A DNA stretch of 64,000 nt, taken from the NCBI GenBank assembly GCA_964512925.1, contig CAZEKH010000001.1, positions 200,226 through 264,225 of the forward strand. The letters run 5' to 3'. Positions 12,533 through 60,967 of this stretch are shown here, piece after piece. This DNA is from an uncultured Candidatus Saccharibacteria bacterium. GTDB lineage: Bacteria > Patescibacteriota > Doudnabacteria > UBA920. The notes below the pieces were generated by a model that saw only the letters and a program-made list of their open reading frames with translations, was not told the origin of the DNA and did not search any database. Both the position numbers and the translations under genes were made by a program. Each line of letters opens with the position of its first letter. Position 1 is the first letter of the stretch.

Positions 12533-12597
12533 ATGTCATTCCGGCCATCGAGCCGGAATCTATGTACCTGGATCCTGGATCAAGTCCGGGATGACAT
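12533..12597. repeat. Family-B hairpin elements (ATGTCATTCCGGCC-N6-GCCGGAATCTAT … GATCAAGTCCGGGATGACAT)
   Basis: intergenic; outer arms ATGTCATYCCGG / CCGGGATGACAT. Confidence 0.6.
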
Positions 12598-12738
12598 AAA
12601 TAATAGACCATTTTCCTGACCCTGAATAAAAGGGCGAGATTGAGAAAGGAGGAGTGTCATGCGATGGCCTGATGCCACTGGTTGGGGAAATTGATCAAAA
12701 TGATCCGCTTGTAGCCAGAGGGGCGAAGTGCTTTGGCT

Positions 12739-12767
12739 GGCCGAGATTTATTCTCGGCCTTTTTTTA
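12739..12767 (+). terminator. rho-independent terminator (GGCCGAGA…TCTCGGCC + T7)
   Basis: perfect 8-bp stem and T-run. Confidence 0.6.
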
Positions 12768-12899
12768 TTGGACATTTTCAGCTATAATTATATAAATAAA
12801 AAAAATGATGAAAATGAGCATAAATGATAAAAATTGTAGGATTTTTGCATTTAATTTTTGTCATTTGTTTAATTTTTGATCATTCTTGTCATTCATATT

Positions 12900-13616
12900 A
12901 TGTCTCTCATACAAATCAAAAATCTGACCAAAGATTATATAAACGAAGACGTGGTAACATCGGTACTTCACGGGATGACTTTTAACATAGAAAAAGGCGA
13001 GTTTGTCGCGATAATGGGCCCTTCCGGTAGCGGTAAGTCCACGCTTATGCACATTCTTAGTTTTTTAGACAGGCTTTCAGGAGGGGAGTATTTTTTTGAA
13101 GGACAGGACACAAGAAATTTCGAAGACGAGTATTTGTCTACTTTGAGAAACGAAAAAGTGGGATTTGTGTTTCAGTCTTTCAATCTGCTGCCTAGAACTA
13201 CAGTTTTAGACAATGTTAAACTACCACTTTTGTATTCAGATCTCAAAAATCACGACGAACTGGCAAAAAAAGCTTTGGACTCAGTCGGACTCTCACATAG
13301 AATGGAATTTTTTACTAACCAGATATCTGGTGGGGAAAAACAAAGAGTAGCCATAGCCAGGGCTTTGGTTTGTAACCCTTCTGTGCTTTTTGCAGACGAA
13401 CCTACCGGCAACTTGGACTCAAAAAGCGGCAACACGGTAATGCAAATTTTGCAAAAACTTAATAACGAAGGCAGAACAATCATACTTGTCACCCACGAGC
13501 AGGACACAGCTAATCACGCTAAAAGAATTATACGAGTAAAAGATGGACTTGTTGCCTCAGATGAGCAAGTCAAGCAAAGGACTATTGCTAGTGGAGACAA
13601 GGAGCTGCTTAAATAG
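12900..13616 (+). CDS. ABC transporter ATP-binding protein, LolD/MacB/FtsE-like
   Basis: Walker A GPSGSGKST, signature LSGGEKQRVAIARAL, Walker B LFADEPTGNLD; ATG 12900 in frame with track start 12876 (TTG). Confidence 0.85.
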   Translation: MSLIQIKNLTKDYINEDVVTSVLHGMTFNIEKGEFVAIMGPSGSGKSTLMHILSFLDRLSGGEYFFEGQDTRNFEDEYLSTLRNEKVGFVFQSFNLLPRTTVLDNVKLPLLYSDLKNHDELAKKALDSVGLSHRMEFFTNQISGGEKQRVAIARALVCNPSVLFADEPTGNLDSKSGNTVMQILQKLNNEGRTIILVTHEQDTANHAKRIIRVKDGLVASDEQVKQRTIASGDKELLK

Positions 13617-13652
13617 TATTAAGTATGTTGTATAAAGTATTTTGCGATAAGA

Positions 13653-13708
13653 CTCCTTCTCCGATACCTGCCCGTCCGGCAGGCGGGTCGGAGAGGGTTG
13701 GGGTGAGG
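13653..13708. repeat. Family-A long variant with extra inner hairpin (…TCTCCGACCCGCCTGCCGGACGGGCAGGTATCGGAGA…)
   Basis: intergenic; near-identical to copy at 18383 in opposite orientation. Confidence 0.75.
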
Positions 13709-13821
13709 TAATAAAGTTTGAATATCAAACCAACTTTAGATTATTACAATTGTTAATATATCATTGTCGTCAATTGCTTTAGATTTCAAGAATATGTTAT
13801 CCATTTGCTGAATATATAGTA

Positions 13822-13857
13822 GAAAAAAAGAAGACCGGCATCGAGGAGCGATGCCGG
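13822..13857 (-). terminator. rho-independent terminator on minus strand (CCGGCATCG…CGATGCCGG + T-run)
   Basis: 9-bp perfect stem; A-run on plus strand = T-run on minus strand. Confidence 0.5.
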
Positions 13858-13885
13858 CGGATGTTCCGGGCGCATCACGCACTGG

Positions 13886-14083
13886 TTAGTGCGTGATGCG
13901 CCACACGATCCCCGCGAGGGTTTTGGTTATCGGGAGGAATGCCTCCCGAATTAGTCCCCCCCAGGGACCCCAAAGTGCTACAATCACGAACGCCACGGCT
14001 GCAAGCAGCCACATGTGTTCGATGATCGCATTTGCTTTCCGGTCGTGCCGGAAAGCGGAAAAAACGGAATGAAACGATGTCAT
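13886..14083 (-). CDS. hypothetical small (65-aa) membrane protein in a high-GC pocket
   Basis: ATG at 14083 within ORF 13886..14173; one TM helix (WLLAAVAFVIVALWGPWGG); followed on the minus strand by two strong hairpins and a T-run. Confidence 0.3.
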   Translation of the reverse strand: MTSFHSVFSAFRHDRKANAIIEHMWLLAAVAFVIVALWGPWGGLIREAFLPITKTLAGIVWRITH

Positions 14084-14188
14084 CTCTCTCTCTTTTCTAG
14101 AAACCCACACAACGGTGTTGCTAGGAGAGAGGAGATGAACTGCGAAGATAACTTTAGAAATTATAACATACATTAACTATACTGTCAA

Positions 14189-15454
14189 GTGAATTTTATT
14201 AGCACAATTAGGCTGGTTATAAGGGGGCTTTTGGCAAGAAAAGGCCGGTCGTTTTTGACGATTTTAGGTATTGTGATTGGAGTTGCCGGGGTGGTGGTTA
14301 TCATTGCTTTGGGCGCTGGCGCTCAGAGTTTGGTGTTAGGGCAGGTGTCTAAATTGGGCAGTAATATAGTTGGGATTTTACCAGGCAAGAGCAATGAAAC
14401 CGGACCGCCGGCAGCTGTGTTTGGCATACAAATAAAAACTTTGACCCTGGAAGACGCGGAAGCTATAAAAAAAAGCGGACGCGTGCCAAATGTGTCAGCA
14501 GTAGCCGGGTTTGCCCGCGGCCAGGGGACAGTAGTTTTTCAGGATAAAAATGTCGACACTTTTTATACTGGCGCTCAGGCGTCGGTAGTTAACATTCAAA
14601 ATATAGAAATGGAAGCCGGTAGATTTTTTACCGAGGAAGAGGAAAAAGGCGGGGCGCAGGTTGTAGTTTTGGGTTTTAGCGTTAAAGAGCAGTTGTTCGG
14701 TAGCGAGGACGTTTTAGGTAAGGCCATAAAAATTTCAGTAACCAGAGGCGACCAGACTTTTTCCGTACCGGCTATGGTGATAGGCACCATAAAAAAACAA
14801 GGCACAGTGGCTTTTCAAAACCAGGATGACCAGGTCTATATTCCCCTAAGCATTGCCCAAAAGCAACTTTTGGGTATCTCGCATTTGCAGTTTATCCGCG
14901 CCAAAGTTGTGGGAGAAGAAAACATTAAGTCCGTTATGGCTGACATCAAACAGCTTTTGATGGAGAGGCATAAAATCAAAACCGAAGACGAAGTGGATTT
15001 TTCTGTTCGGGACTTGGCTGACGCTCTCAAGCTTCTTTCCGGCATCACTGACGGGATGCGGATGTTTTTGACTTTGATGGCGGCGATTTCGCTGATAGTC
15101 GGAGGAATAGGGATTATGAACATAATGCTGGTAACCGTGGCAGAAAGAACCAGAGAGATTGGTTTAAGAAAAGCAGTGGGCGCCACAGCGAGGGACATAA
15201 GAAATCAGTTTTTACTTGAATCCTCTTTGGTTACTTTGCTCGGAGGTGTGATTGGTATTGTTTTAGGGGCATTCTTGGCTTACCTGGCAGCGTTAGGCGC
15301 GCGTTATGCGGGCTACGACTGGGCCTATGTGGTTTCGCTTGGTTCTATAGCTATGGCTGTGGGAGTTTCAATTTTAACCGGAATGGTTTTTGGGCTTTAC
15401 CCGGCCTTAAAAGCGTCAAAATTAGACCCAATAGAAGCTTTGAGATATGAGTGA
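14189..15454 (+). CDS. ABC transporter permease, MacB/LolCE (FtsX) family
   Basis: N-terminal TM, MacB periplasmic domain, C-terminal FtsX helices; downstream of the ABC ATPase. Confidence 0.8.
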   Translation: MNFISTIRLVIRGLLARKGRSFLTILGIVIGVAGVVVIIALGAGAQSLVLGQVSKLGSNIVGILPGKSNETGPPAAVFGIQIKTLTLEDAEAIKKSGRVPNVSAVAGFARGQGTVVFQDKNVDTFYTGAQASVVNIQNIEMEAGRFFTEEEEKGGAQVVVLGFSVKEQLFGSEDVLGKAIKISVTRGDQTFSVPAMVIGTIKKQGTVAFQNQDDQVYIPLSIAQKQLLGISHLQFIRAKVVGEENIKSVMADIKQLLMERHKIKTEDEVDFSVRDLADALKLLSGITDGMRMFLTLMAAISLIVGGIGIMNIMLVTVAERTREIGLRKAVGATARDIRNQFLLESSLVTLLGGVIGIVLGAFLAYLAALGARYAGYDWAYVVSLGSIAMAVGVSILTGMVFGLYPALKASKLDPIEALRYE

Positions 15455-15571
15455 GAAAATTTCTAATTACCTAATTCTGAATTAACCTAATTAAATCCCA
15501 AAATAAAACGATTTAAATAAATATGTGTATTATTAGAAATGAGAATAATTAGTTTAATAGAATAATTTGCT

Positions 15572-16831
15572 ATGCTCGTCGCTTTACAACAATCTATCAA
15601 AACACTTAGAAGCAACCTGGTACGCACTGCCCTGACGACTCTTGGCATTGTAATTGGCATTGCTTCGGTGGTGATGGTGCTGTCGGCAGGGGCGGGTTTT
15701 AAGTCGTACATAAATTCCCAGGTTTCCGCTTTTGGCAGCAATTTTATTACCGTGGAAACACGGGTGCCTCCTACAACTAAAAATCGGGCATCTGGTTCTT
15801 CCGGCGGTTCGCAGTCAAATTCGGCGAGTCAGGCGGTCGGCATAACCACTTTAAAGCAAAAAGATGTGGATGAAATTTCCAGGCTGCCAAATATTTCCGG
15901 AGCTTACGGCGCAGTGATCGGCCAGAAGATTGTTTCCTACAAAGCGGTGAGTAAAAATTCATTTGTGTTTGGAGCAAATGCGTAAAGATTTTCCATTGAT
16001 AGGGGAGTTTTGGCTAAAGGCAGGCCTTATAGCGAGATTGAGGATAGAGCGGCTGATCAGGTTGCAGTTTTGGGCGCGGATATCGCAATAGATCTTTTTG
16101 GTCAGGAAGACCCGCTAGGAAAGACCGTCAGGGTCGGTGAATATAATTTTTTAGTCATAGGGGTATATGAAAGAAGGGGTAGTTTTGGTTTTTCCAACGA
16201 CGACCAGCAAGTTTTTGTGCCGCTCAAGACAGCCCAAAAAAAACTTTTAGGAATTGATCATTTATTTTATGTCTTGGCGCAGGCCAAGGATCCTGCACAA
16301 GCAGAGGCCACTGCCGAAGATATGAGGTATATACTCAGGCAGAATCACGATATACAAGATCCTGCAAAAGATGATTTTGCGGTGCAAACCCAGGCGCAGG
16401 GACTGGAAACATTTGATCAAATCTTAAAAGGTATTACTTTTTTGCTCATTGCTGTGGCAGCGATTTCACTTTTGGTGGGCGGGGTGGGTATTATGAACAT
16501 AATGTATGTGGCGGTGACTGAAAGGATTGCTGAGATTGGGCTGAAAAAAAGCGTGGGCGCCAAAGAAAAAGATATTTTAGCTGAGTTTTTAACCGAAGCC
16601 GTGATCCTGACTGTTTTGGGGGGTGTTTTAGGTATACTTTTGGGAGCTCTACTATCTTATGGTGTAGCTTTGGGAGCTAGGGCTTTTGGTTTTGCCTGGG
16701 ATTTTTCAGTGCCAGCGTCTGGCGTGTTTTTGGGCTTGGGTGTTTCTACGGTAATCGGTTTGTTGTTTGGAGTTTTTCCGGCCAGGACTGCTGCAAAGAT
16801 GCAGCCTATCGATGCCCTCAGGAGCGAGTAA
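15572..16831 (+). pseudogene. second MacB/LolCE-family permease interrupted by an in-frame TAA (15983..15985); pieces 15572..15985 and 16010..16831 are in the same frame
   Basis: the two ORFs together match the full-length paralog 14189..15454; the stop falls where an aromatic residue is expected (…FGANA*RFSIDRG…), consistent with TAY->TAA. Confidence 0.6.
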
Positions 16832-18292: not shown

Positions 18293-18295
18293 AAA

Positions 18296-18382: not shown

Positions 18383-18440
18383 CCTCACCCCCTAACCCTC
18401 TCCGACCCGCCTGCCGGACGGGCAGGTATAGGAGAGGGAG
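18383..18440. repeat. Family-A long variant
   Basis: abuts the topA stop codon. Confidence 0.75.
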
Positions 18441-20795
18441 TTATTGAGCTTTCTTTTTACCATAAACCTTGCGAGGTTTTGGAGGGTTTTCCTTCCAGTG
18501 TTTTAGGGCTTCTTGGAGTTCTGCTTCACTTTCAGGTTTTTTGGACATTATAAAGTTGCAATCCGGAAAACGATTGCAGGCATAAAAGAGTTTACCGCGG
18601 CCGCGGGATTTTCTTTCTACCACATCGCCAGTTTGGCAATTGGGACATTTAAACCCGGTTTTGTTCCAAATTTTGCTGATGCCTTTGCATTTGGGGTAGT
18701 CAACACAGCCCAAGAAAAATCCAAACCGCCCTTTTTTGACTTTCATTTCTTTGCCGCAGATGGGGCAGACTTCGCCCTTGGTTTTTTCTTCCAAAGCTTT
18801 GATCTGGGCTTCTTCTTCCGGCATTGGCTTGGTGGTTTTGCACTCAGTATCTGGGCAGGCCATAAATTTACCGGTCCGGCCGAATTTGATGATCATCATT
18901 TTGCCGCATTTCGGACAGGGGATGGTGGTTACCTCAATCTGTTTTTCCACACTCGCTTCTTTTTCTTTCAGATGTTTTTTGAAAGGTCCGTAAAATTCGT
19001 GCATTACCTCGGTCCATTTCATTTTGCCTTCCGCTATCTGGTCAAATTCTTCTTCTATATGCGAAGTAAAGTTTATATCTACGATCTCAGGAAAATTTTC
19101 AACCAGCATATCGGTTACCAAAAACCCTTCTTCAGTGGGCTTGAATTTTTTTTCTTCCTTGGTTACATAACCGCGGACCTCTATGGTGGACAGTGTAGGA
19201 GCATAGGTTGAGGGTCTGCCAATGCCGTGGGCTTCCAGCGCTTTAACCAGGCTGGCGTCCGTATACCTGGCAGGGGCTTCAGTAAAATGCTGGAGCGGCA
19301 AAAGCTCGTGAAGTTTGAGTTTTTCTTGTTCTGACAGCTCAGGCAGCATACCTTCTATCTCATCTTCCGGTTTTTCATCCGACCCTTCGGTATAGGCGCG
19401 GATAAATCCGTCAAACTTTATGACTTGTCCGTTGGCGCGAAAGACATAATTATTGATCTGCTGATTTTCTGCTTGCCCTTCATAGCCTTGGCGAAGGAGG
19501 GATCTACTGGCAGGCTTGGCTTCTATATCCACCGCAGTTTGTTCCATCAACGCAGCCTGCATCTGACAAGCGATGGTTCGTTTCCAGATTAAGTCATAGA
19601 GCCGAAACTGCTGTCTGTCTAAATATTGTTTTAAATTTTCAGGTTTTCTTAAGACATCGGTTGGACGTATGGCTTCGTGCGCTTCCTGCGCGCCTTTAGA
19701 CTTGTTGGTAAAATGTCTGGGTTCAGACAGACCGTATTCTTTGCCGAATTCGGCAGAGATGACTTGGCCTATGGCAGTTAAAGCTGATTGAGCCAGGTTC
19801 AAACTGTCGGTACGCATATAGGTGATAAGTCCCTGGTGGCCTTCATCGCCAATATCAATTCCTTCATAGAGCTGTTGAGCTACCATCATTGTCTGTTTGG
19901 CTGACATACCGAGTTTGCGCGCCGCTTCTTGTTGGAGCGTGGAAGTGGTAAAAGGGGCGGATGGATTTCTTTTAACTTCTTTTTTGGTAATTTCAGAAAT
20001 TTGATAATTTGCGCCTTCAAGATCAGCGACAATTTTTTTGCCTTCAGTCTCAGACTTGATATCCATTTTGCCCACAGTTTTGTCGCCGATTTTGTGGAGT
20101 TTGGCTATGAAGGTTTTATAACTCCCCCCATCCCCCTCTTTAGTTAAAGAGGGGGTGCCGGAGGCGGGGGAGTTTTTGGATAGCTTTGCTTCTATGCTCC
20201 AATACTCTTCCGCAACGAATTTTTGGATTTCCCTTTCCCGTTCAACAACAAGCCTGACAGCCACTGACTGGACGCGTCCGGCTGAAAGACCATACCGGAT
20301 TTTTCGCCAAAGAAAAGGGGAGAGTTCATAACCTACAAGCCTGTCTAAAACCCGCCGAGCCTGTTGGGCGTCAACCAAGTTGATATCTATAGAGCGGGGG
20401 TTTTCTAAGGCGTGTTGGATGGCGGTTTTGGTAATCTCGTGGAAAACGATGCGTTGAATGTTTTTGACGGATGAGGTTTTGCCTTTAGTTTTATTGAGAT
20501 CCAGCGCTTCTATCAAATGCCAGGAGATACTTTCTCCTTCGCGGTCTTCGTCAGTGGCAAGGATGATTTCCTGGCTGTCCTTGGCCAGTTTTTTTAGTTT
20601 GGCAACAGTTTCTTTGGCTTTAGCTGGGATGGAGTAGGTGGGTTCAAAGTCGTGTTCAGTGTCCACGCCCATTTTGCTTTTTGGCAAGTCGCGTACGTGA
20701 CCAAAGCTGGCTTCTACTGTGTAGCCACTGCCTAAAAAACGCGAGATGGTTCTCGCTTTGGTCGGGGACTCGACGATGATAAGAGGCTTGGACAT
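18441..20795 (-). CDS. topA: DNA topoisomerase I
   Basis: TOPRIM N-terminus, Topo IA core, C-terminal zinc-ribbon repeats; in-frame palindromic-element insertion encoding …NSPASGTPSLTKEGDGGS…. Confidence 0.9.
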   Translation of the reverse strand: MSKPLIIVESPTKARTISRFLGSGYTVEASFGHVRDLPKSKMGVDTEHDFEPTYSIPAKAKETVAKLKKLAKDSQEIILATDEDREGESISWHLIEALDLNKTKGKTSSVKNIQRIVFHEITKTAIQHALENPRSIDINLVDAQQARRVLDRLVGYELSPFLWRKIRYGLSAGRVQSVAVRLVVEREREIQKFVAEEYWSIEAKLSKNSPASGTPSLTKEGDGGSYKTFIAKLHKIGDKTVGKMDIKSETEGKKIVADLEGANYQISEITKKEVKRNPSAPFTTSTLQQEAARKLGMSAKQTMMVAQQLYEGIDIGDEGHQGLITYMRTDSLNLAQSALTAIGQVISAEFGKEYGLSEPRHFTNKSKGAQEAHEAIRPTDVLRKPENLKQYLDRQQFRLYDLIWKRTIACQMQAALMEQTAVDIEAKPASRSLLRQGYEGQAENQQINNYVFRANGQVIKFDGFIRAYTEGSDEKPEDEIEGMLPELSEQEKLKLHELLPLQHFTEAPARYTDASLVKALEAHGIGRPSTYAPTLSTIEVRGYVTKEEKKFKPTEEGFLVTDMLVENFPEIVDINFTSHIEEEFDQIAEGKMKWTEVMHEFYGPFKKHLKEKEASVEKQIEVTTIPCPKCGKMMIIKFGRTGKFMACPDTECKTTKPMPEEEAQIKALEEKTKGEVCPICGKEMKVKKGRFGFFLGCVDYPKCKGISKIWNKTGFKCPNCQTGDVVERKSRGRGKLFYACNRFPDCNFIMSKKPESEAELQEALKHWKENPPKPRKVYGKKKAQ
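20123..20172. repeat. Family-A-like element
   Basis: in frame inside topA. Confidence 0.65.
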
Positions 20796-21068: not shown

Positions 21069-21106
21069 GCGGCCGACAGTGCGTTCGGCCGCCGCTTTTT
21101 TATTTT
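21068..21106 (+). terminator. rho-independent terminator (GGCGGCCGA…TCGGCCGCC + T-run)
   Basis: 9-bp GC stem followed by TTTTTTATTTT. Confidence 0.65.
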
Positions 21107-22413
21107 AAAGTACTTTCTTTTTCCCCGATTTTTTCTAGGATTTTTTTTGACTCTTCGGGCGTGGCTGGACGGGGCGTGGAAAAGTTTTCTATGATTACCG
21201 GAATTAGTTCTATTGAGTCAAGTTTAGCAGGAGTTTTTGTTCCCTGAAGCTCATTTTGTCCGCCAGCTGGCGGATTGATTTTTGCCTGCCCGCCTTGTGC
21301 GTTCGGGCGGGATATTTGAATTTTTAAAGCTAGTCCTTCTTTGGTTTCCTGACTCCACTCTTGGTCAAAGATGAAGTTGCCGAGAGAGTAGAAGATATAT
21401 TTGGGGTTTGGGCATTGTGTTTTATCAACCTCTCCCCCCGCCATCCCTTCTTGAGGGGAGGGAGTTTCTTGAATCCCCCTCGCCTCTTGAGGAGAGGGGT
21501 TAGGGGAGAGGTTGTCTTTCGCGCAATACCTCTCTATAGTCTGCACCCAGTGAGGGTGAGCGCCGATGACTATGTCTGCCCCGTAGTCTATGGCGCTGTG
21601 GGCAAAGTCAATTTGGGACTGGTTGGGCGTGCGGGTGTATTCTGTTCCGGCGTGCATTGTAGCCACGACAAAATCGCAAAGCGATTTTGAATACTCAATA
21701 TTCAACTTTAAATTTTCAATATCTTCTATCCTGGCTACGAAATCATTCATTATTTTACCCCCGTCATTTACAGAGGAGTAGGAAGCCCCGACAAAACAAA
21801 TTTTTATCCCGTTTTTTTCTAACATAGCAGGCTGCCAGGCCTCTTTTATATTACTTCCTGTTCCCATATGCTTGATACCCGCATCATTCAATTTTTGTAT
21901 AGTTAGGTCCAGCCCGGTTTTTAGTTGGTCTAACGCATGGTTATTGGCCAAGTTCAAAACCTCAAAATTATATTTTTTTAATATATCAACAGAAGAAGTG
22001 GCAGCGCCGAAGACCAGGGAGCTGCCGCCGATTACAGCTTTTTTTGCCAAAGGACTTTCCAGGTTGCCGAAAGCAAAATCTGCGGATTTGAGCTGTTCAG
22101 CCATTTTTAAAAAAGGCAGTTCTGGATCGCCGAATTCTTTGGCTTTAAGGGCAACCTTGCGGGAGAGGATGATATCGCCGACCGCAAGGAAACTTGCGGA
22201 TGTTGTTTTGGGTTCTGTTTTTTCGCCTCTGAGCTCCTGCCCTTTTTTATAAAAAGCCAAAAGGTCGTTTTGCAAATCGCCTGTTTGGGCAGTGGTCGGC
22301 AGGCCTGTAAAGTCATTTTCATTGCTGCGTAAAAGTCCCAAGAGAGCCGCTAGCGCTAAAATACTCGCCACTATAATAGAAATAATTTTTGTTTTTGACA
22401 TAGTTGTAATCAA
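21100..22413 (-). CDS. CapA/PgsA-family metallophosphoesterase-like protein
   Basis: N-terminal TM; CapA motifs (MHAGTEYTRTP…IVIGAHPHWVQ); two adjacent in-frame palindromic-element insertions (…SPNPSPQEARGIQETPSPQEGMAGGE…). Confidence 0.65.
   Translation of the reverse strand: MITTMSKTKIISIIVASILALAALLGLLRSNENDFTGLPTTAQTGDLQNDLLAFYKKGQELRGEKTEPKTTSASFLAVGDIILSRKVALKAKEFGDPELPFLKMAEQLKSADFAFGNLESPLAKKAVIGGSSLVFGAATSSVDILKKYNFEVLNLANNHALDQLKTGLDLTIQKLNDAGIKHMGTGSNIKEAWQPAMLEKNGIKICFVGASYSSVNDGGKIMNDFVARIEDIENLKLNIEYSKSLCDFVVATMHAGTEYTRTPNQSQIDFAHSAIDYGADIVIGAHPHWVQTIERYCAKDNLSPNPSPQEARGIQETPSPQEGMAGGEVDKTQCPNPKYIFYSLGNFIFDQEWSQETKEGLALKIQISRPNAQGGQAKINPPAGGQNELQGTKTPAKLDSIELIPVIIENFSTPRPATPEESKKILEKIGEKESTLK
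21429..21464. repeat. Family-A element
   Basis: in frame inside capA-like CDS. Confidence 0.65.
21475..21513. repeat. Family-A element
   Basis: adjacent second copy inside capA-like CDS. Confidence 0.65.
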
Positions 22414-23836: not shown

Positions 23837-24400
23837 TAAATTTAAAAATTTTTTTATTTCCAGTTCAATTTTTGGAAAGACTTCTTTCTGCAGCTGTTCC
23901 AGCTCAGTTTGTAAGAAATTTTGTAATACAAAGGCTTCTGTGGGCAAGATGGTTTTCTCCAGCCTGGATTCAACCCCAATCCTGAGGCGCTGAAAATCCT
24001 GAGTGCCTAAGTGTTCGATTATGCTTTTTATGCCGTTGTGTCCGGCTGCGGAAGAGGAGTGGGTATGGCGGATTTTTCCAAGAGGTAAATCTATTTCATC
24101 CTGTAACACTAACAGATCTTTTGTATAATTAAGTTTATAGAAATCGCAAATTTCTTTAACTGCTTTTCCCGACTCATTCATATAAGTTTGGGGTTTAACA
24201 ACTATTACCCCTCCTCTTAAGGTAAGAGGAGGTAGGGGGGAGTTATGAATCTCCAAAATTTCAGAATGGAATTTTTTTTCCCAATTTGCATTCTGCAATT
24301 TAAATTCTGCAATCAAAAAATCCAAAGCCAGCCACCCGACGTTGTGCCTAGTGTTTTTATATTTTTCTCCCGGATTGCCCAATGCAACAATGATTTTCAT
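23834..24400 (-). CDS. pth: peptidyl-tRNA hydrolase
   Basis: MKIIVALGNPG…TRHNVGW…HNGIKS motifs; in-frame palindromic-element insertion (…SPLPPLTLRGG…). Confidence 0.85.
   Translation of the reverse strand: MKIIVALGNPGEKYKNTRHNVGWLALDFLIAEFKLQNANWEKKFHSEILEIHNSPLPPLTLRGGVIVVKPQTYMNESGKAVKEICDFYKLNYTKDLLVLQDEIDLPLGKIRHTHSSSAAGHNGIKSIIEHLGTQDFQRLRIGVESRLEKTILPTEAFVLQNFLQTELEQLQKEVFPKIELEIKKFLNL
24208..24242. repeat. Family-A-like element (CCCCTCCTCTTAAGGTAAGAGGAGGTAGGGGGGAG)
   Basis: in frame inside pth. Confidence 0.65.
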
Positions 24401-33650: not shown

Positions 33651-33700
33651 TTGTCATCCCGGCCGATCCGCCAGCAGGCGGAGAGAGCCGGGATCCAGGG
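33651..33700. repeat. Family-B element TTGTCATCCCGG…CCGCCAGCAGGCGG…CCGGGATCC
   Basis: intergenic, upstream of the high-GC block. Confidence 0.6.
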
Positions 33701-33916: not shown

Positions 33917-35002
33917 ATGAAATTGCGTTTTTCTTGCGCCCTCGCGGCGCTTTTGCTGTTCGTTTTTGCTTCGGCTGCCCACGCGGCTGAAGATGTTGAA
34001 ATTTCGTTGGTTGGACAGCCGGGGGTGATGGACGCCCTTCAGGCGTCCGACCTAGAGCTCAACGAGCAGATTGGCGGGATTGAAAACCCTGCCAATCTTA
34101 TCAGCCAGCTTCATCTGGCTGATGGTTCTCGGGTTACGCCCGAGAATGCTCACACGCTTTCGGTCAAGTCAGTTTTTTTGAGCAGAAATGCTCAGGAAGA
34201 CGGCCCTGGCGCCGCTCGGTTCCTTGCCGAGTGCAACCGCCTCGCTACCACCCGGCAGCAGGCTATTGCCTCCGCCCGCCGTTCAGCCAACCGCATCGAT
34301 GCGGTTCAGTCCGAAGCGGACGACCGCCAGCTGCTCACGCAGATGGCGGAAATGCAGTCCGAAATCAACGCGCTCAACGAGCGCGTTGAAACTCTCGTCG
34401 AAGAAAAAACCGCCGCCGTTCAGCGTGCGGAAACCGCGGAGCAAAAACTAGCCGCCCTCCAAGCGGCTGGAACCCCGAAACCTTCATCGGCCGCCCCTCC
34501 GGCGACCGACACCCAGAAACAGTTCGAACCAGCTGGCACGAGCCAGAAGAAAGGTGTTTTGGCGGTTCGCCAGGTTGTGCCTCCGTGCCGACCCGGTGTC
34601 AACACTCGGCCGTGCAGTATGGCTGAGGTTGAAAAAACCATTTTAGAGCAGGAACTGGGGGGCATTATACCCCAAATCACAACGCTCTTAATAGTTTTGT
34701 TGATATTTTTCTCGGCCGCGATTGTTGCGGGTACGAGTGGTGCGTTCCAAGCGTGGGCTGATGTCTACGCCACGGTTAAAAAAGCTGGGAAACCCCAGCA
34801 ACCCATCGCGGCCTCAAATATCTATGCTGTTTTACAGCAGCAAGCCAATTTGGGAAATCCACCCAACCTAGAATCTTTAAAAAACCGGCGTCCCACATGG
34901 GAACGTAGAGAAAAAGATAGAAGGGATGGTGGCGACCGCAGGTCGCCAGAATCGGGTCAAGTCATTGAAATTTCGACCGACGCGAGTCGGGCAACAGGCT
35001 GA
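33917..35002 (+). CDS. secreted coiled-coil protein with C-terminal TM helix and Arg-rich tail (high-GC gene)
   Basis: signal peptide MKLRFSCALAALLLFVFASAAHA; Ala/Glu/Gln-rich coiled coil; GC and GC3 clearly above the genome background. Confidence 0.5.
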   Translation: MKLRFSCALAALLLFVFASAAHAAEDVEISLVGQPGVMDALQASDLELNEQIGGIENPANLISQLHLADGSRVTPENAHTLSVKSVFLSRNAQEDGPGAARFLAECNRLATTRQQAIASARRSANRIDAVQSEADDRQLLTQMAEMQSEINALNERVETLVEEKTAAVQRAETAEQKLAALQAAGTPKPSSAAPPATDTQKQFEPAGTSQKKGVLAVRQVVPPCRPGVNTRPCSMAEVEKTILEQELGGIIPQITTLLIVLLIFFSAAIVAGTSGAFQAWADVYATVKKAGKPQQPIAASNIYAVLQQQANLGNPPNLESLKNRRPTWERREKDRRDGGDRRSPESGQVIEISTDASRATG

Positions 35003-35249: not shown

Positions 35250-35280
35250 AAACTGAAAAAACTGAAAAAACTGAAAAAAA
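35250..35280. repeat. tandem (AACTGAAAA)x3
   Basis: immediately 5' of the Family-E palindrome. Confidence 0.6.
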
Positions 35281-35336
35281 TTTTGCTGTCAACTATGACA
35301 CATATGTGTTACGATTGACAGCAAAATTTTTTTCAG
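35270..35336. repeat. Family-E AT-rich long palindrome (…AAATTTTGCTGTCAACTATGACACATATGTGTTACGATTGACAGCAAAATTT…)
   Basis: 35 nt upstream of the PaaX-like gene; inverted copy at 36031..36078 and a third copy at 61966..62016. Confidence 0.7.
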
Positions 35337-35365
35337 GTATTTTGGATTAAATAACAAAAATATAT

Positions 35366-36512: not shown

Positions 36513-36589
36513 GTACACAAGAAAAATCTTCATAAACATTGTTCGTGTCCTTTGCGGTAAATGTCTTATTGCTTTTAACAGAGGTTCGA

Positions 36590-36644
36590 CCTCTCCCGCC
36601 CCGATGTCCATCGGGGCACCCTCCCCAGGCCTGGGGAGGGTAAG
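36590..36644. repeat. Family-A variant with inner CCCCGATGTCCATCGGGG hairpin
   Basis: intergenic; CCGATGTCCATCGG core recurs at 35131..35150. Confidence 0.6.
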
Positions 36645-37426: not shown

Positions 37427-37452
37427 GCGGTAGTTTGAAAAAGGAAAAAATC

Positions 37453-38016
37453 ATGAAAGTTATATTCGTTCTCCTTTTTTCTCTGGGCGTCATGAACGCC
37501 CAGAGCGTGATAACTGCCGTGCCTTGCACGGTCGGCGGGCAAACCGGTTGGTGCGCAATTTTGCCGCCGGTACAATCCCTGGCCGCACAGCCCGCGCCAC
37601 CGCCTGCTCCGAGACCGCAGCCAACCAGAGTATTCGATCCAAAAGATCGGGCACTTCTGGAGAAAATCGTCGCCCTTGCCGAACGGCAAGGATCGGTTGT
37701 CACGGTTCAGCCCCACCAGGCCGCACAGACCGTCGCTACTCCATCCGTCTCCCAGCCACAACAACCGGTCGTTCAGTCGATCGTGTCCCAGAAGACAATG
37801 GACACTATCGACCGTCGGCTGACTGCCTTGGAAACAGGGCAGAATACCCATGCCGAGAGGATTAACCAGATCGGCGACCGAGTGGTCGCCGTAGAGGGTC
37901 GTGCCAACGAGGCTCTGTCCGCCGCCCAAGCGACGGCGAATGCAGAGCAGCAGCTCCGCAACGCCGTACGCCAGTACGGCACAAAGGACCTGAAAAAGGT
38001 TCTGAACAAGAAGTAA
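37453..38016 (+). CDS. secreted proline-rich coiled-coil protein (high-GC gene)
   Basis: ATG 37453 preceded by AAAGGAAAAAA; signal peptide MKVIFVLLFSLGVMNA; APPPAPRPQP then coiled coil. Confidence 0.45.
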   Translation: MKVIFVLLFSLGVMNAQSVITAVPCTVGGQTGWCAILPPVQSLAAQPAPPPAPRPQPTRVFDPKDRALLEKIVALAERQGSVVTVQPHQAAQTVATPSVSQPQQPVVQSIVSQKTMDTIDRRLTALETGQNTHAERINQIGDRVVAVEGRANEALSAAQATANAEQQLRNAVRQYGTKDLKKVLNKK

Positions 38017-38141: not shown

Positions 38142-38163
38142 AATTCCTTTATTTCAAGTACAA

Positions 38164-38197
38164 CCTCTCTGTCCCGATCTGATCGGGACATCTCTCC
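38164..38197. repeat. Family-D hairpin CTCTCTGTCCCGAT-CTG-ATCGGGACATCTCTCC
   Basis: copies also at 38839..38870 and, inverted, 51201..51232. Confidence 0.6.
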
Positions 38198-38266
38198 TCC
38201 GCCAGCTGGCGGATTGGGGAGAAAAATATTGAATACTGCTTTGGGATTTATGATTTAGAGTTGCAA

Positions 38267-38303: not shown

Positions 38304-38696
38304 AGGATGTTGAACTCTGAAATGTGGGTCTTGATATTAGAAAGGAATAGGGATACCAACTTTGTCTGCTACTAGTTTCGCCCATTCTTCCAGCCTTTGA
38401 ATTTTTTTGTGGTTGACTGTTAGTTCTTCGTGAATGGTTTTGGTAAGATGGGATAAATTTGTAAGAGCGGTAGAATGAACATTTAAAGTTTCTTTAATTT
38501 CTTTAAATTGAGCATCTACTTCGGCAAATTTTTCATCCAAATATGTAAAAATTGATTGTAAATTTATATCCATAAAGTTACTGAATGAATTGTTGTAAAA
38601 GTATTATAACAATTAACAAAATGAGTGGCAAATTATGTGGATTTAATGAGGGTTTGGGTGAGAGTATGGAAATTGGTGCATTAACCAAGTCTGTAA

Positions 38697-38732: not shown

Positions 38733-38740
38733 AAATGCAA

Positions 38741-38765
38741 GATTCCCGTATGCACGGGAATGACA
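38741..38765. repeat. Family-B subtype GATTCCCGT-ATGC-ACGGGAATGACA
   Basis: near-identical to 60943 copy. Confidence 0.6.
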
Positions 38766-38838
38766 GAGACAAGTAAGGAATGACAAATAAAGTTAGGAGG
38801 ATGTTCTTTAAAAATTTAGCGTTTGTTTTTTGGTAGCA

Positions 38839-38870
38839 CCCTCTCTGTCCCGATCTGATCGGGACATCTC
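38839..38870. repeat. Family-D hairpin
   Basis: identical core to the 38164 copy. Confidence 0.6.
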
Positions 38871-38888
38871 CCCCCAAAGGGGGAGAGA
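38867..38888. repeat. Family-A short form TCTCCCCCC-AAA-GGGGGAGAGA
   Basis: repeat hotspot. Confidence 0.55.
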
Positions 38889-51183: not shown

Positions 51184-51204
51184 TCTCCCCAAGACTTGGG
51201 GAGA
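51184..51204. repeat. Family-A short form TCTCCCC-AAGACTT-GGGGAGA
   Basis: directly after nrdJ stop, fused to a family-D element. Confidence 0.55.
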
Positions 51205-51232
51205 TGTCCCGATGAATATCGGGACAGAGAGG
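51201..51232. repeat. Family-D hairpin (GAGATGTCCCGAT-GAAT-ATCGGGACAGAGAGG)
   Basis: directly after nrdJ. Confidence 0.6.
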
Positions 51233-51300
51233 TTGAGTAAAAATTGAAAATTTAAAAATCAAAAATTAAAATTACAGTTTAAAATTTAAAATTAAGAAAT

Positions 51301-51627: not shown

Positions 51628-51719
51628 AAAATCAGGCGGCCTCGTCGTCTCCGAGAACCGCCTTATTGATGTTCATCACTGACTCCTTTAGGAGTGTATG
51701 ATTGCAAAATTGTTATATT

Positions 51720-52406
51720 ATGTCAATAAAAAAGAAACCCACAAATAAACGGATCAAAATGCCGGAGAAGTTTTCTGACGAGCCGAAGGGGTTGGTGATT
51801 TGTTATTTGGGGGCGGGGAAGGGGAAGACTACGGCGGCGATGGGGATGGCTGTTAGGGCGGCTGGAGCCGGGATGAATGTTTATATACTGCAGTTTGTAA
51901 AAGCAAAGGGAGCGGACGAGGAGGGGAAAAAAGTCGGCGAGTGGCCGGTGTCGAGCGAAATTGAGTTTTTTAATGCTTTGGAACAATATCACCCCCTAGC
52001 CCCCTCTTATGCTAAGAGGGGGAATGAAGGGGAGGGAAGAATTGGAAATATCTATAATGAGCAAGTTGGTTTAGGGTTTGTGGGGATATTGGGCGACCAG
52101 AAAGAAAAGGCAGTTCATATCAAAGCGGCGCTGGATGGGTTAAACAAAGCCAGGGAAATTATTTCCAGCGGACGATACCAAGTCGTTATTTTAGACGAGA
52201 TTATTTCCGCTTTGGAATCCAAACTTTTGGAAGAAAGGGATATTTTGGATTTAATCTCCGTCAAAAGTCCACTTCAGCATCTGGTTTTGACGGGACATAA
52301 TAAATTCCCTAAAATACTGGAGCGTTGTGATTTGGTTACGGAAATGGTGATGGTGAAGCACCCATACTATAAAGGGATACTTGCGCAAAGAGGAATAGAT
52401 TATTAG
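51720..52406 (+). CDS. cobO: ATP:cob(I)alamin adenosyltransferase, CobO/BtuR family
   Basis: P-loop GAGKGKTTAA…, …VVILDE…, …LVLTGHN…; in-frame palindromic-element insertion; start uncertain (TTG 51702, ATG 51720 or 51759). Confidence 0.7.
   Translation: MSIKKKPTNKRIKMPEKFSDEPKGLVICYLGAGKGKTTAAMGMAVRAAGAGMNVYILQFVKAKGADEEGKKVGEWPVSSEIEFFNALEQYHPLAPSYAKRGNEGEGRIGNIYNEQVGLGFVGILGDQKEKAVHIKAALDGLNKAREIISSGRYQVVILDEIISALESKLLEERDILDLISVKSPLQHLVLTGHNKFPKILERCDLVTEMVMVKHPYYKGILAQRGIDY
51991..52036. repeat. Family-A-like element
   Basis: in frame inside cobO. Confidence 0.6.
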
Positions 52407-52912: not shown

Positions 52913-53094
52913 TTGAACAAAGTTATACTTTTGGGTTAGGGTTTAAGTGAATAAATTAAAATAATATTTAACAGACATTGAAAATTAATCTAATTTCTAA
53001 TTGTTCTAATTGACCTAAAATTAAATTGCTTCGGATTTTTTAGAATAATTATTAATTAGTCCGCCAGATGGCGGAAATTAGAACAATTTAAAAT

Positions 53095-53694
53095 ATGGTT
53101 TACTTAATAATACTTTTAGCAGTTTTGTCCAGGTTTGTGCCGCATATGCCAAACTTTGCGCCCATAACCGCTTTGGCTATTTTTACCGCAGCTTATATGC
53201 CGTGGAAAAAAGCCGCGGGACTGACTTTGGTTGTTCGTTTGATCAGCGACATTTTTTTGGGATTTTTCTCCTGGCCGATGATGCTGGCTGTTTATGCTTC
53301 GCATCTGGCAGGAATTGTGTTTGGAGTATGGATAAAGAACTCCTCCCGGCCTCCTCTTTGCCAAAGAGGAGGAGTTAAAGAGAAGTTATATTCCCCCTCT
53401 TTACCAAAGAGGGGGTTAGGGGGAGTTAATTTTTCTAAGGTTTTTGTGTCCTCGTTAGGTTCCTCAATAATCTTTTTTTTAGTCACAAACTTTGCTTTTT
53501 TGTATTCTAACTACCCGCATACGTTAGCGGGCATACTTCAAGCTTATATAAACGGCCTGCCTTTTTTGCGCGGTACGATGTTTGGCGATTTAGTTTATTC
53601 CTTTGCTTTTTTTGGAGCGTATGCTTTGGCTTCAATGAAGTTCAAATTTGCAAATAGGACAAATCTACAAATGATTACAAATGATAAATATTAG
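53095..53694 (+). CDS. small polytopic membrane protein, possibly an ECF-type S component (speculative)
   Basis: 5-6 TM helices; two in-frame palindromic-element insertions in a loop; adjacent to the DUF4430 gene. Confidence 0.3.
   Translation: MVYLIILLAVLSRFVPHMPNFAPITALAIFTAAYMPWKKAAGLTLVVRLISDIFLGFFSWPMMLAVYASHLAGIVFGVWIKNSSRPPLCQRGGVKEKLYSPSLPKRGLGGVNFSKVFVSSLGSSIIFFLVTNFAFLYSNYPHTLAGILQAYINGLPFLRGTMFGDLVYSFAFFGAYALASMKFKFANRTNLQMITNDKY
53350..53373. repeat. Family-A-like short palindrome CCTCCTCTTTGCCAAAGAGGAGG
   Basis: in frame inside the 53095 membrane-protein CDS. Confidence 0.55.
53393..53425. repeat. Family-A-like element
   Basis: second in-frame copy inside the 53095 CDS. Confidence 0.55.
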
Positions 53695-57364: not shown

Positions 57365-57403
57365 AAAAATCCCCCCACTTATAATTTTATTGGGGATTTT
57401 TTT
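57365..57403. terminator. bidirectional rho-independent terminator (AAAAATCCCC…GGGGATTTTT)
   Basis: 10-bp stem flanked by A-run and T-run between convergent ndk and rel. Confidence 0.6.
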
Positions 57404-57451
57404 AACCTTGATCATTGTAGATCAGCGAAAAGTCCTATTAAGTCCGCGTTT

Positions 57452-58963: not shown

Positions 58964-59017
58964 ATATTACGCTAGATGCTATAATTGTAGCAATATTAAG
59001 CTGAAATATCTACTCTT

Positions 59018-60022
59018 ATGCCAGAACTCCCGGAAGTTGAAACAGTTGTCAGAGAACTCAACAAAAAACTAAAAAATCTAACATTGAGTAAGGTGGTTGT
59101 TAACTATGGAAAAATGGTGCATTTGGGTGAGCAAATAGTGAGTAACAAAAGGCAGGATGACAATGGTAGGGTTAAGCAGTTTAAAAATTTATTGGTCGGC
59201 GCCAAAGTGTTAAGTGTGACAAGAAGGGCTAAGCTGTTAATTTTTAGATTGGAGAGCGCCCCCACCCCCCAGCCAACAGCTAGACAGTTAGGCGGGCAGG
59301 CATCCCTCCTCCGCAGTGCGGGAGAGGGGATGCTATATTTATTAGTCCACTTAAAAATGACCGGACAGTTCATCTTTGAAGATGAAAAGCTGAAGAAGAA
59401 GACAGGCAGCCATTACCGCCTATTAAACAAAAAAACAGCACCTTTGGTACAGCTTCCTGGAAAACATACCCACATATTTTTTTATTTTACTGACGGTTCG
59501 GTTTTGTATTTTAACGACGTACGCAAGTTTGGGTATATGAAACTGTTGGTTGGTGGTGAAGCGGTAAAAGTTTTAGCATTTCCCGAGTACGGTCCGGAGC
59601 CTTTGGACAAGAAATTTAAATTACGACAATTTTTAACAGCTGTTAAAAATTGTCAAAAAAGAAAAATCAGCATCAAGATGTTGTTAATGGAGCCTTCCTT
59701 TGTGGCGGGCATCGGCAACATTTACAGCGACGAAATATTATTCCACGCTGGAGTTAAGCCGGACAGGAAAGTTGGAACATTGAAAAAACTAGAAATAGAA
59801 GAAATATATAGAAACATTAAACCAGTTTTGCTAACTGGCATAAAAGCCAAAGGTTCCAGTGTGGGGGATTTTGTGCGCACAGATGGCAGTTGGGGGAAAA
59901 TGGGCAAATATCACTATGTTTACGGCCGGCGCGGGCAAAAATGCAAAAAATGCGGTACAATGATACAAAGCCTAAAGCTGGGTGGCAGGACAGCGAGTTT
60001 TTGTCCCAAATGCCAGGGGTAG
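59018..60022 (+). CDS. mutM: formamidopyrimidine-DNA glycosylase
   Basis: MPELPEVETV N-terminus, H2TH, C-terminal zinc finger CKKCG…CPKCQ; in-frame GC-rich insertion (…SAPTPQPTARQLGGQASLLRSAGEGM…). Confidence 0.85.
   Translation: MPELPEVETVVRELNKKLKNLTLSKVVVNYGKMVHLGEQIVSNKRQDDNGRVKQFKNLLVGAKVLSVTRRAKLLIFRLESAPTPQPTARQLGGQASLLRSAGEGMLYLLVHLKMTGQFIFEDEKLKKKTGSHYRLLNKKTAPLVQLPGKHTHIFFYFTDGSVLYFNDVRKFGYMKLLVGGEAVKVLAFPEYGPEPLDKKFKLRQFLTAVKNCQKRKISIKMLLMEPSFVAGIGNIYSDEILFHAGVKPDRKVGTLKKLEIEEIYRNIKPVLLTGIKAKGSSVGDFVRTDGSWGKMGKYHYVYGRRGQKCKKCGTMIQSLKLGGRTASFCPKCQG
59266..59332. repeat. Family-A-like GC-rich insertion
   Basis: in frame inside mutM. Confidence 0.5.
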
Positions 60023-60192
60023 TAGTAAGTATTAAGTATTTTGTATAAAGTATTAAGCAAAAAAGTTTGAGAGATAAAATATTTAGTATTAATTCCGATT
60101 TACTGATGAAACAAATTTTACCGATACCTGCAGATATTTAATATCCGTAGGTATCGGTATATCTGTAATCTGTATATCGGCATATTTATGTT

Positions 60193-60414
60193 ATGGAAAA
60201 TCAACAAATAGAAAATAAGATCCAAGAAATGTCTACGGAAGATCTGTTAAAGGAAATTTTGGAAAACACCCGAAAGACCAAAAACTACATAAAGTGGCAG
60301 ATGTATATCACTGTGGCGTTTGTGGTGCTACCGCTTTTGGCGGCTTTGGCTATTATCCCAATGGTAATGAGTAATTTAACCGGCCTGGCTGGGGCTTATG
60401 GGCTAGGGCAATAA
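60193..60414 (+). CDS. hypothetical small membrane protein
   Basis: 73 aa with one TM helix. Confidence 0.35.
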   Translation: MENQQIENKIQEMSTEDLLKEILENTRKTKNYIKWQMYITVAFVVLPLLAALAIIPMVMSNLTGLAGAYGLGQ

Positions 60415-60459
60415 AATATTTAATTTGAGTATTGACTGATATTTATATAAACACTCAAA

Positions 60460-60493
60460 CCTCTCCCTAGCCCTCCCCAAGCTTTGGGGAGGG
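60460..60493. repeat. Family-A element
   Basis: intergenic, upstream of 60512. Confidence 0.65.
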
Positions 60494-60511
60494 AAACTAA
60501 AAGGAAATGCT

Positions 60512-60859
60512 ATGACAGAAGAAAAATGGCAGGAGATAGTGGCGATGGTTCAAAAAAATTATCCGGGATCAAAATTAACCCAGGAAGATTTGGAAATGGA
60601 TACGCCGGACGGGCCGGTAAAAAACGGGACCGCGGATGTTTTGAGTTTTACCAATTCGGACGGCGACCGGTTTGAGCTGGTTCGCGAAAACAAGCCTGTG
60701 GTTTTGAAAAAAAAGGAACTCTATTCCACCCGCGCTGGCCAGTCCGCCCAGGTCCAATACAAATTTTCCGACAGCGAAACATCTCACAAGCTTAGGGTTT
60801 ACAAAGAGGTGGGGTTTGATGAGTGGGAAGAGATAACTTTAGACAAGCTCAGCTTGTAA
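60512..60859 (+). CDS. hypothetical protein
   Basis: 115-aa ORF, no motif. Confidence 0.35.
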   Translation: MTEEKWQEIVAMVQKNYPGSKLTQEDLEMDTPDGPVKNGTADVLSFTNSDGDRFELVRENKPVVLKKKELYSTRAGQSAQVQYKFSDSETSHKLRVYKEVGFDEWEEITLDKLSL

Positions 60860-60884
60860 TTTTTAAATAATATAGGCAACTCAT

Positions 60885-60967
60885 TTGTCATTCCGGCCCA
60901 AGAGCCGGAATCTAGTTAATTTGATTGTATTTTTTTAAACAAGATTCCCGTTTTCACGGGAATGACA
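60885..60967. repeat. pair of Family-B subtypes (TTGTCATTCCGGCC-N6-GCCGGAATCTAG and GATTCCCGT-TTTC-ACGGGAATGACA)
   Basis: intergenic between 60512 and 61023 genes. Confidence 0.6.

Follow-up and report, generated by a model that had tools for sequence, protein, structure and literature searches.

Repetitive extragenic palindromes (REPs) carrying a CGTC tag constitute a superfamily that was defined by Di Nocera et al. in 2013 and that includes dRS3 of Neisseria and RPE-4 and RPE-6 of Rickettsia (PMC3733652). In these repeats, the tag is often TGTC (or CCTC), the stems of 8-9 bp start with AT, the loop takes 4-5 nt, with other loop lengths noted for some families, the palindrome is followed by a 3-nt tail, and most copies are arranged in opposed dimers; no transposase or REP-associated tyrosine transposase (RAYT) was associated with them in the 2013 survey (PMC3733652). 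In 2025, Chenal et al. redefined the longer form of dRS3, which became NTS (CGTCATTCCCGCGMAVGCGGGAATCYRG), and called the relatives of NTS Ssn-related motifs (SRMs) (PMC11893778). SsnA, a 94-aa single-domain GIY-YIG protein, binds the NTS hairpin only as single-stranded DNA (ssDNA) and cuts a few bases upstream; specifically, in assays with the Neisseria enzyme, cutting depends critically on the GTC located 5' of the palindrome, and binding on the C located 3' of it (PMC11893778). SRMs are found near 71% of the ssn homologues, and 81% of the genomes with more than 200 SRMs encode Ssn (PMC11893778). Here, we compare with these systems two families of short hairpin repeats, Family B and Family D, that recur in a 64,000-nt stretch of an uncultured Candidatus Saccharibacteria bacterium (assembly GCA_964512925.1, contig CAZEKH010000001.1, positions 200,226 to 264,225 of the forward strand; hereafter, the window).

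The balance of the evidence tilts towards both families being non-coding hairpin repeats whose action and spread take place in DNA, and not RNA signals. As far as its sequence can tell, Family B would add a member from a new host phylum to a repeat family that is already known, as is the type of enzyme that partners it, and we infer such a partner for this genome. Family D appears to be a previously undescribed REP-type module, built of two hairpins and shared by several phyla. Both lie in DNA that is rich in such structures, with 48 GC-rich perfect hairpins in the window against 3.0 +/- 1.4 in shuffles (about 16-fold enrichment), which bears out the unusual repeat richness proposed by an earlier reading of this DNA from its letters alone (the sequence-only reading).

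The exact core TGTCATYCCGG occurs six times in the window against 0.04 expected from shuffles, and the inclusion of the CCCGT variant brings Family B to the eight copies that the sequence-only reading had listed, all of them found within 1-5 nt of where it placed them:

12534..12563, plus strand: subtype B1, TGTC tag, stem ATTCCGGC/GCCGGAAT, tail CTA (fold -8.0 kcal/mol, z -4.1); it makes up the left half of an opposed dimer whose spacer measures 10 nt
12568..12596, minus strand: subtype B2, TGTCATCCCGGACTTGATCCrGGATCCAG, decayed by one G to A change in the 3' arm (z 0.06); right half of the same dimer
33652..33698, plus strand: copy with a long loop, in which the small palindrome TCCGCCAGCAGGCGGA is nested (33667-33682) (fold -16.4 kcal/mol, z -5.3)
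38738..38765, minus strand: subtype B3, ATTCCCGT-GCAT-ACGGGAAT, that is, ATTCCC-N8-GGGAAT; exact fit to the published SRM pattern
46526..46568, plus strand: long-loop copy, located downstream of ftsZ at a distance of 264 nt, 100% identical in the Logan contigs L151 and L152
47447..47496, minus strand: B2 type, with a GC-rich hairpin of about 21 nt inserted in the 3' arm; Logan contig L151 ends inside it, at 47477
60886..60915, plus strand: B1, left half of a second opposed dimer, whose spacer measures 30 nt; position 60885 is where Logan contig L001 begins
60940..60967, minus strand: B3, exact fit to the published SRM pattern; right half of the same dimer

The copies align as the TGTC tag followed by AT(Y)CCSG, the loop, CSGG(R)AT and C(Y)A, and all eight have the tag, a stem that starts with AT and covaries at its third base pair, and a C directly after the palindrome, so that the positions critical for cleavage and binding by the Neisseria enzyme (TGTC-AT...AT-C) are invariably present. 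All eight are intergenic, and as DNA hairpins seven are more stably folded than their shuffles (z -2.5 to -5.7), the exception being the decayed copy at 12596. The stems of the B1 and B3 copies are perfect over 8 bp, and the tails read CTA, CCA or CTT. The loop measures 4 nt only in the two B3 copies and 5-23 nt in the others, some of which contain nested hairpins. The two close dimers (12534/12596 and 60886/60967) are both arranged plus then minus, with the tags outward and with halves of different subtypes; the strict alternation of strands along the eight copies (+-+-+-+-) ceases to be compelling statistically when each dimer is taken as one unit.

These features fit membership of Family B, as judged by sequence, in the CGTC/TGTC-tagged REP superfamily. 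With the families CGTC-1 to CGTC-4 it shares the TGTC variant of the tag, 8-bp AT-first stems, the 4-nt loop (in B3), the 3-nt tail, opposed dimers (in B, of different subtypes), several subtypes per genome and no linked transposase; it differs from them in the loops longer than 4-5 nt, in a tail that is often CTA or CTT instead of CCA, and in a host phylum outside the five listed (PMC3733652). With NTS and the SRMs it shares the oriented 5' (C/T)GTC tag, the AT-first stem, the C placed 3' of the palindrome and the CYA/CYRG tail, as well as the intergenic, multi-copy distribution (eight copies per 64 kb) in flanking pairs with outward tags. Conversely, six copies have CCGG-type stems with loops of 6-23 nt or nested hairpins, the host is a member of the Patescibacteria and no ssn gene lies in the 64 kb. 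The published SRM pattern, HGTCWYN(0-2)YYVSBRHN(0-5)WNVSBRGN(0-2)RNCYNB, fits two of the eight copies (38738-38765 and 60940-60967) against 0.14 expected in shuffles.

Family B is not confined to the window. A scan of IMG/VR with the CCGG-type core of the window, in which the tail CA(G/T) was left unspecified, returns at least 120 matching stretches, and the short-loop CCGG-type relatives fit the SRM pattern, with at least 144 matches to it in the B loci. Among the IMG/VR matches listed, the tail CA(G/T) is present in about 80% of the copies; since this tail was unspecified in the search, its recurrence indicates one family and not chance. In the same set, the third stem pair covaries (C-G in 42 copies, T-A in 37, mismatched in 5), and 23 of the 32 close pairs are arranged plus then minus with the tags outward. 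One of the collected contigs (L097) carries a GIY-YIG gene (PF01541) flanked by SRM(+)...SRM(-), the same arrangement as the dimers of the window; a search of viral contigs for relatives of this nuclease gives two loci only. Moreover, a 483-kb Moranbacteria contig (L207) contains near-canonical copies of the Neisseria-type NTS, TTGTCATTCCCGCGGAGGCGGGAATCCAG, at 9311-9334 and 12310-12333, a few kb from a D module; classical-type SRMs thus occur in Patescibacteria.

Tag identity also bears on whether the repeats could be REPINs or miniature inverted-repeat transposable elements (MITEs) mobilised by a RAYT (IS200/IS605-type Y1) or by another transposase encoded elsewhere. The opposed dimers with outward ends do resemble REPINs or the terminal inverted repeats of MITEs, the absence of copies from relatives (see below) implies gain, and small hairpins are nested in other hairpins. 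Like the GTAG REP/BIME elements and the REPINs associated with RAYT, the repeats of the window are short GC-rich extragenic palindromes that lie in AT-richer spacers, form opposed dimers and take part in mosaic clusters with other repeats (here, at 38.1-39.0 kb). The tag is, however, TGTC and not the GTAG recognised by RAYT, and belongs to a superfamily with which the 2013 survey associated no transposase (PMC3733652). Pfam and NCBIfam profile searches, which took in about 58 open reading frames (ORFs) of the window, reveal no RAYT, no Y1_Tnp domain and no other transposase or nuclease, none recurs beside D modules in 84 loci, and the copy boundaries show no target-site duplications. Mobilisation by a RAYT or another transposase is therefore quite improbable, and the cognate transposase or RAYT that the sequence-only reading had suggested looking for finds no support. 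The REP/MITE-like description of the repeats stands in its REP part, the families being dispersed, intergenic and hairpin-rich, and falls in its MITE and RAYT part, given the lack of duplications and of a recurrent neighbour gene.

Two pairs of opposed B copies were considered as possible brackets of mobile cargo. The pair 46526/47496 was rejected, the 128-aa ORF that it encloses being a conserved syntenic gene, and the pair 33652/38765 is not supported, as the high GC content between the two copies comes from ORFs for Pro/Ala-rich secreted proteins.

The second family, D, has a different architecture. The palindrome TGTCCCGAT-N3/4-ATCGGGACA, by which it was recognised, is hairpin 1 of a conserved module of about 55 nt with two hairpins, AACCY-CTC-TGTCCCGAT-loop-ATCGGGACA-TCTCYCC-loop-GGRGAGA, an arrangement seen in nearly every genuine copy. 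The palindrome lies at 38170, 38846 and 51205, within a few bases of the three copies given by the sequence-only reading, which missed a fourth, variant copy:

38162..38222, plus strand: D1, AACCT-CTC, hairpin 1 TGTCCCGAT-CTG-ATCGGGACA, hairpin 2 TCTCTCC...GGGGAGA with a small palindrome in its loop (38198-38213) (fold -19.3 kcal/mol, z -5.6)
38837..38886, plus strand: D2, hairpin 1 at 38846-38866 and hairpin 2 at 38867-38886; its minus strand matches Rfam whalefall-1 below threshold over the full length
51184..51235, minus strand: D3, hairpin 2 at 51184-51204 and hairpin 1 at 51205-51226; it starts 19 nt past the nrdJ stop codon, antisense to nrdJ
36588..36641, plus strand: D-like variant, GACCTCTCCC, hairpin GCCCCGAT-GTCC-ATCGGGGC, hairpin CCCTCCCC...GGGGAGGG, with a 76% match to contig L165

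The D copies all lie between genes, and as DNA hairpins every D module folds far better than shuffles do. A loose 10-mer test gives 6 matches against 2.0 expected and is not significant alone. The 28-nt core of D1 is identical to that of D2, and 25 specified bases are common to D1-D3 and recur in other genomes; D3, in particular, shares 85-94% identity with copies in unrelated contigs (L145, L154, L165, L188 and L194), over stretches of 51-76 nt. Scans with the 25-base core, and then with a 22-base core plus flank, locate D at 24 loci in 11 species representatives of GTDB, whose carriers belong to Moranbacteria/Moraniibacteriota, Parcubacteria, Shapirobacteria, Saccharibacteria, Leptospiraceae, another spirochaete lineage and Bdellovibrionales, with the Moraniibacteriota MAG STA_10 and Moranbacteria GW2011_GWE2_36_40 among them; the organism of the window is not one of these GTDB hits. 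In metagenomes, 60 loci match the D core (28-72% GC), of which about 50 (28-64% GC) remain after five T-box leaders and four loci without repeat flanks or a second hairpin are set aside; no viral contig with a D module was found in IMG/VR. Families B and D are thus present in many other genomes, which agrees with the earlier view of dispersed families as opposed to local duplication and contradicts the confinement to this window that the sequence-only reading had named as its refutation.

Hairpin 2 was outside the search pattern, and it is nearly always present; its arms occur in 12 variants that match their own partner at 7.3 of 8 positions, compared with 6.2 of 8 for the arms of other copies. 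A custom structural scan of all the DNA gathered also finds alternative forms of hairpin 1 in the D frame (TGTCATG...CATGACA, TGTCGCC...GGCGACA, TGTCGCGA...CGCGACA and GCCCCGAT...ATCGGGGC). Because these variant stems share the same frame, the conserved parts of D are its flanks and TGTC...GACA, the inner stem being compensatory. Despite the shared TGTC, D is not assigned to the CGTC-tagged REPs, since its TGTC is base-paired with GACA, leaving no unpaired tag, and its stem starts with TG and is not AT-first. A literature search for the D sequence retrieved no description of it.

Among known elements, the closest resemblance is to Rfam RF01762 (whalefall-1), to which the minus strand of D can be aligned from end to end: each consists of a CUCUCC/GGAGAG hairpin, a brief spacer, another hairpin that begins with GUCC and finishes with GGAC, and a 3' flank rich in purines. 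On the other hand, D2 scores 20.5 bits where the gathering threshold is 37, the two differ in the stem sequence of the second hairpin, and there is no sign of D acting as an RNA. In 20 other D loci, whalefall-1 has no match at E<=0.1, and an Rfam scan of the window at gathering thresholds detects two tRNAs only. Five metagenome matches to the D stem (L155, L156, L182, L183 and L191) have a different, GGTACC-type flank and a hairpin TGTCCCGAT...ATCGGGACATCTC, and were excluded as T-box leaders; L155, the only one of the five scanned against Rfam, is a T-box leader with 106.9 bits. In these contigs, the stem is convergent or coincidental and has no relation to the D repeat.

In other genomes, D adjoins Family A hairpins (a further repeat family of the window) or sits inside longer lineage-specific repeats, and the D loci carry B and A copies too. 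In a metagenome-assembled genome of Leptospiraceae (L149), D lies inside a unit of at least 298 nt (1-298 and 1240-1537) that is repeated at 97% identity 1.2 kb apart; D is therefore embedded in different, larger lineage-specific repeats. By eye and for the commonest pairs, the 5' flank CCYCTCT of D mirrors the 5' arm TCTCYCC of hairpin 2 in 7-8 of 8 positions (e.g., 38162-38169 versus 38191-38197; L127-L212), so that the flank runs parallel to the purine arm GGRGAGA. This mirror flank could represent a pyrimidine-purine-pyrimidine triplex, or be merely low-complexity sequence.

Chance matches, local duplication or an assembly artefact are hardly credible as an explanation of the two families. 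Local duplication could be read into D1 and D2, which lie 676 nt apart and have identical 28-nt cores, but the same motifs are present in hundreds of unrelated contigs, and chance is excluded by the shuffle statistics. As for the assembly, Logan contigs of 1-2.6 kb from two samples (SRR14271336 and SRR14271332) match the window at 100% identity and, specifically, reproduce 44881-47477 with its repeat copies; these assemblies being independent, the repeats are not an artefact of one of them. Of the seven ends of Logan contigs, two fall at B copies, which gives weak support to the idea that B is present in several copies in that sample.

The positions and orientations of the copies bear on whether the hairpins work as RNA elements, either as intrinsic terminators or as 3' stabilisers that shield upstream mRNAs from exonucleases, the classical proposal for REPs and an idea raised by the sequence-only reading. 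In line with it, all copies lie between genes, mostly genes of the same direction, D3 and the B copy at 60886 are only 19-27 nt past a stop codon, the stems are stable, and Di Nocera et al. argued that many REPs are transcribed (PMC3733652). However, only one of 11 copies is terminator-like, the repeats have no proper T-tail, and the genes possess their own terminators (e.g., 47280-47317 and 44613-44648), so that a terminator role was rejected; for most B copies, moreover, the upstream stop codon is 195-600 nt away. The tag and tail are asymmetric and conserved, yet the copies are found in both orientations to transcription: four plus and four minus for B in the window, 35 versus 35 relative to the flanking genes for B in IMG/VR (148 copies, among the matches listed) and 3 versus 3 for D. 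G-U pairs are rare on both strands, with no excess on one of them of the kind that selection acting on a transcribed strand would produce. A role as RNA elements is thus unlikely, and recognition of a DNA strand is the simpler reading because of the conserved asymmetry of tag and tail.

Comparison with related genomes concerns, instead, whether the copies are kept by the host. No A, B or D copy is present in 62 kb of syntenic DNA from the three closest relatives, compared over 20-kb regions with the same gene order (FtsZ 77-78% identical), which favours a recent gain. The absence of copies from these relatives, together with the decayed copy, the diversity of subtypes and the insertion of hairpins in hairpins, indicates gain and turnover and not conserved host signals. 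This is relevant to the proposal that the repeats are immobile double-stranded sites for a chromosomal protein (a nucleoid protein, gyrase or a regulator) maintained by host selection. In enterobacteria, REP/BIME elements bind IHF and gyrase, and the stem bases of the present families are conserved across very different genomes. The orthologous spacers of close relatives nevertheless contain no copies, which shows that the repeats are not conserved host sites, the copy variants, decayed copies and nested insertions indicate turnover, and the compensatory changes in the stems favour a hairpin over a duplex. Duplex binding sites are thus a still more distant prospect than mobilisation by a transposase.

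The adjacency of the families to each other and to Family A, as described by the sequence-only reading, is real and is clearest in the 38.1-39.0 kb cluster. In this respect, the window recalls the neisserial intergenic mosaic elements (NIMEs), in which dRS3-type hairpins are interleaved with other repeats in long intergenic mosaics, as A, B, D and a small palindrome are here around a 78-aa ORF; the units interleaved in the cluster have, however, no sequence relation to the neisserial RS elements. The ORF in the middle of the mosaic (38337-38573, minus strand) is coiled-coil-like and has no Pfam match, with D1 and an A copy on its left and an A copy, a B copy and D2 on its right.

The small palindrome CCGCCAGCWGGCGG is found with 0-1 mismatch at 21260, 33668, 38199 and 53061, in agreement with the four sites proposed from the sequence, two of which (21253 and 53064) had been placed 7 and 3 nt away; when as many as 2 mismatches are allowed, 11 strand-matches are obtained where 0.52 are expected. 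Two of the four are nested, one in the loop of the B copy at 33652 and one in the loop of hairpin 2 of D1, and this placement suggests that insertion prefers existing hairpins. The other two are the following:

21259..21274, no strand assigned: small palindrome TCCGCCAGCTGGCGGA, in the C-terminal tail of an ORF with a PGA_cap domain (21100-22413, minus strand)
53060..53075, no strand assigned: small palindrome TCCGCCAGATGGCGGA, alone in an AT-rich spacer

Small GC-rich palindromes are more generally seen in the loops of an A copy (18396-18438), of the B copy at 33652-33698 and of hairpin 2 of D1 (38194-38222), and in the 3' arm of the B copy at 47447-47496. Family-A-like hairpins also lie in frame within two conserved genes, CobA/BtuR (51981-52040, in ORF 51702-52406) and DUF6580 (53344-53427, in ORF 53095-53694), as insertions of about 15-25 aa: one hairpin, CCCCCTCTT...AAGAGGGGG, is at 52000-52022 and two more are at 53350-53372 and 53393-53415. 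The orthologues of both genes in the loci L123, L125 and L126 have no hairpin insertions. This behaviour resembles that of the Rickettsia palindromic elements. Further repeat hairpins lie in long ORFs at 20132-20155 (topA), 24210-24232 (pth) and 8826-8860 (a methyltransferase ORF, 8291-9277, minus strand), and that of topA shares 91% identity, over 55 nt, with the end of an IMG/VR contig (L067).

By analogy with the neisserial system, a chain of events can be proposed for Family B. Its hairpin, in which the 5' TGTC tag is unpaired, the stem starts with AT, the loop varies and the tail reads C(Y)A, and which often occurs in opposed pairs with the tags outward, would become single-stranded during transformation uptake, replication or repair, and a small nuclease of the Ssn family, with a single GIY-YIG domain, may then bind it. 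The gene for this putative nuclease would lie elsewhere in the genome, and the enzyme would nick the DNA a few bases 5' of the TGTC tag; nicking may restrict or modulate the integration of incoming DNA. The B repeats would probably multiply as passengers of a selfish or domesticated nuclease. As for D, its invariant flank and stem bases and its free loops, a conservation like that of B, may point to another putative ssDNA-binding enzyme, and we infer that D is recognised by a different trans-acting, sequence-specific one. More tentatively still, D may be the recognition element of a second site-specific ssDNA enzyme; the module would then move between phyla (Patescibacteria, Leptospiraceae, Bdellovibrionales and high-GC organisms) as Ssn/NTS does and, together with Family A and the small palindromes, would preferentially enter or adjoin hairpins that are already present, even in frame in genes.

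Several observations weigh against the reading of both families as DNA-level repeats with partner enzymes. No Ssn or other GIY-YIG gene is present in the 64-kb window; a search by regular expression and phmmer over the six frames of the window and of 1.85 Mb of loci returns one such gene only, that of L097, and 19% of SRM-rich genomes have no Ssn homologue (PMC11893778). Six of the eight B copies, with their longer stems and loops, fail the published SRM pattern, and D, with neither an AT-first stem nor a C after the palindrome, is by definition no SRM. No protein is recurrently linked to D: all-against-all BLAST of the ORFs of 84 loci yields only generic ABC ATPases and spurious ORFs that read through repeats. 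The conserved syntenic gene between 46526 and 47496 implies that opposed copies need not delimit mobile cassettes.

The window has about 42% GC and is about 80% coding, with most genes on the plus strand. It includes hrcA-grpE-dnaK-dnaJ, topA, der, hisS, ftsA, ftsZ, nrdR-nrdJ, a short RelA/SpoT gene, an LCP transferase gene and groES, as well as the ssDNA-uptake genes dprA and comEC and a gene for a pilin-like protein. The best relatives of its FtsZ are at most 78% identical, and those with names are Patescibacteria.

Other features of the window stand apart from the two families. A long hairpin at 35259-35349, between a 361-aa ORF and a PaaX-like ORF, has a relative of about 57-69 nt, 81-89% identical, at 61965-62021, in the spacer after ORF 61023-61940; the similarity holds in both orientations, and by its sequence the pair looks like another repeat family. 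ORF 35366-36025 matches the central Cas2-like domain of PaaX (PF20803, E 1.8e-13), and its neighbours are ORFs for Pro/Ala-rich secreted or membrane proteins (33917-35002, 36794-37426, 37360-38016 and 39094-39852) that raise the local GC content to 52-65%. A MacB/FtsX-type permease is split over two adjoining ORFs (15572-15985 and 16010-16831) directly after an intact paralogue (14189-15454), and may be a frameshifted pseudogene or reflect a sequencing error.

For annotation, the B and D repeats account for many spurious "hypothetical proteins" in metagenomes. With about 25 near-invariant bases and a covarying second hairpin, D is a precise search handle, and phylogenetic profiling of carriers against non-carriers could reveal a new hairpin-specific nuclease or transposase; work on Ssn indicates that such enzymes are useful as ssDNA tools. 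Ultra-small Patescibacteria are thought to depend on DNA uptake. On the evidence of its sequence, Family B would extend the Ssn/NTS system of ssDNA restriction to an ultra-small Patescibacteria genome, and the presence of dprA and comEC in the same window makes this a natural case for asking what role such repeats have outside Neisseria.

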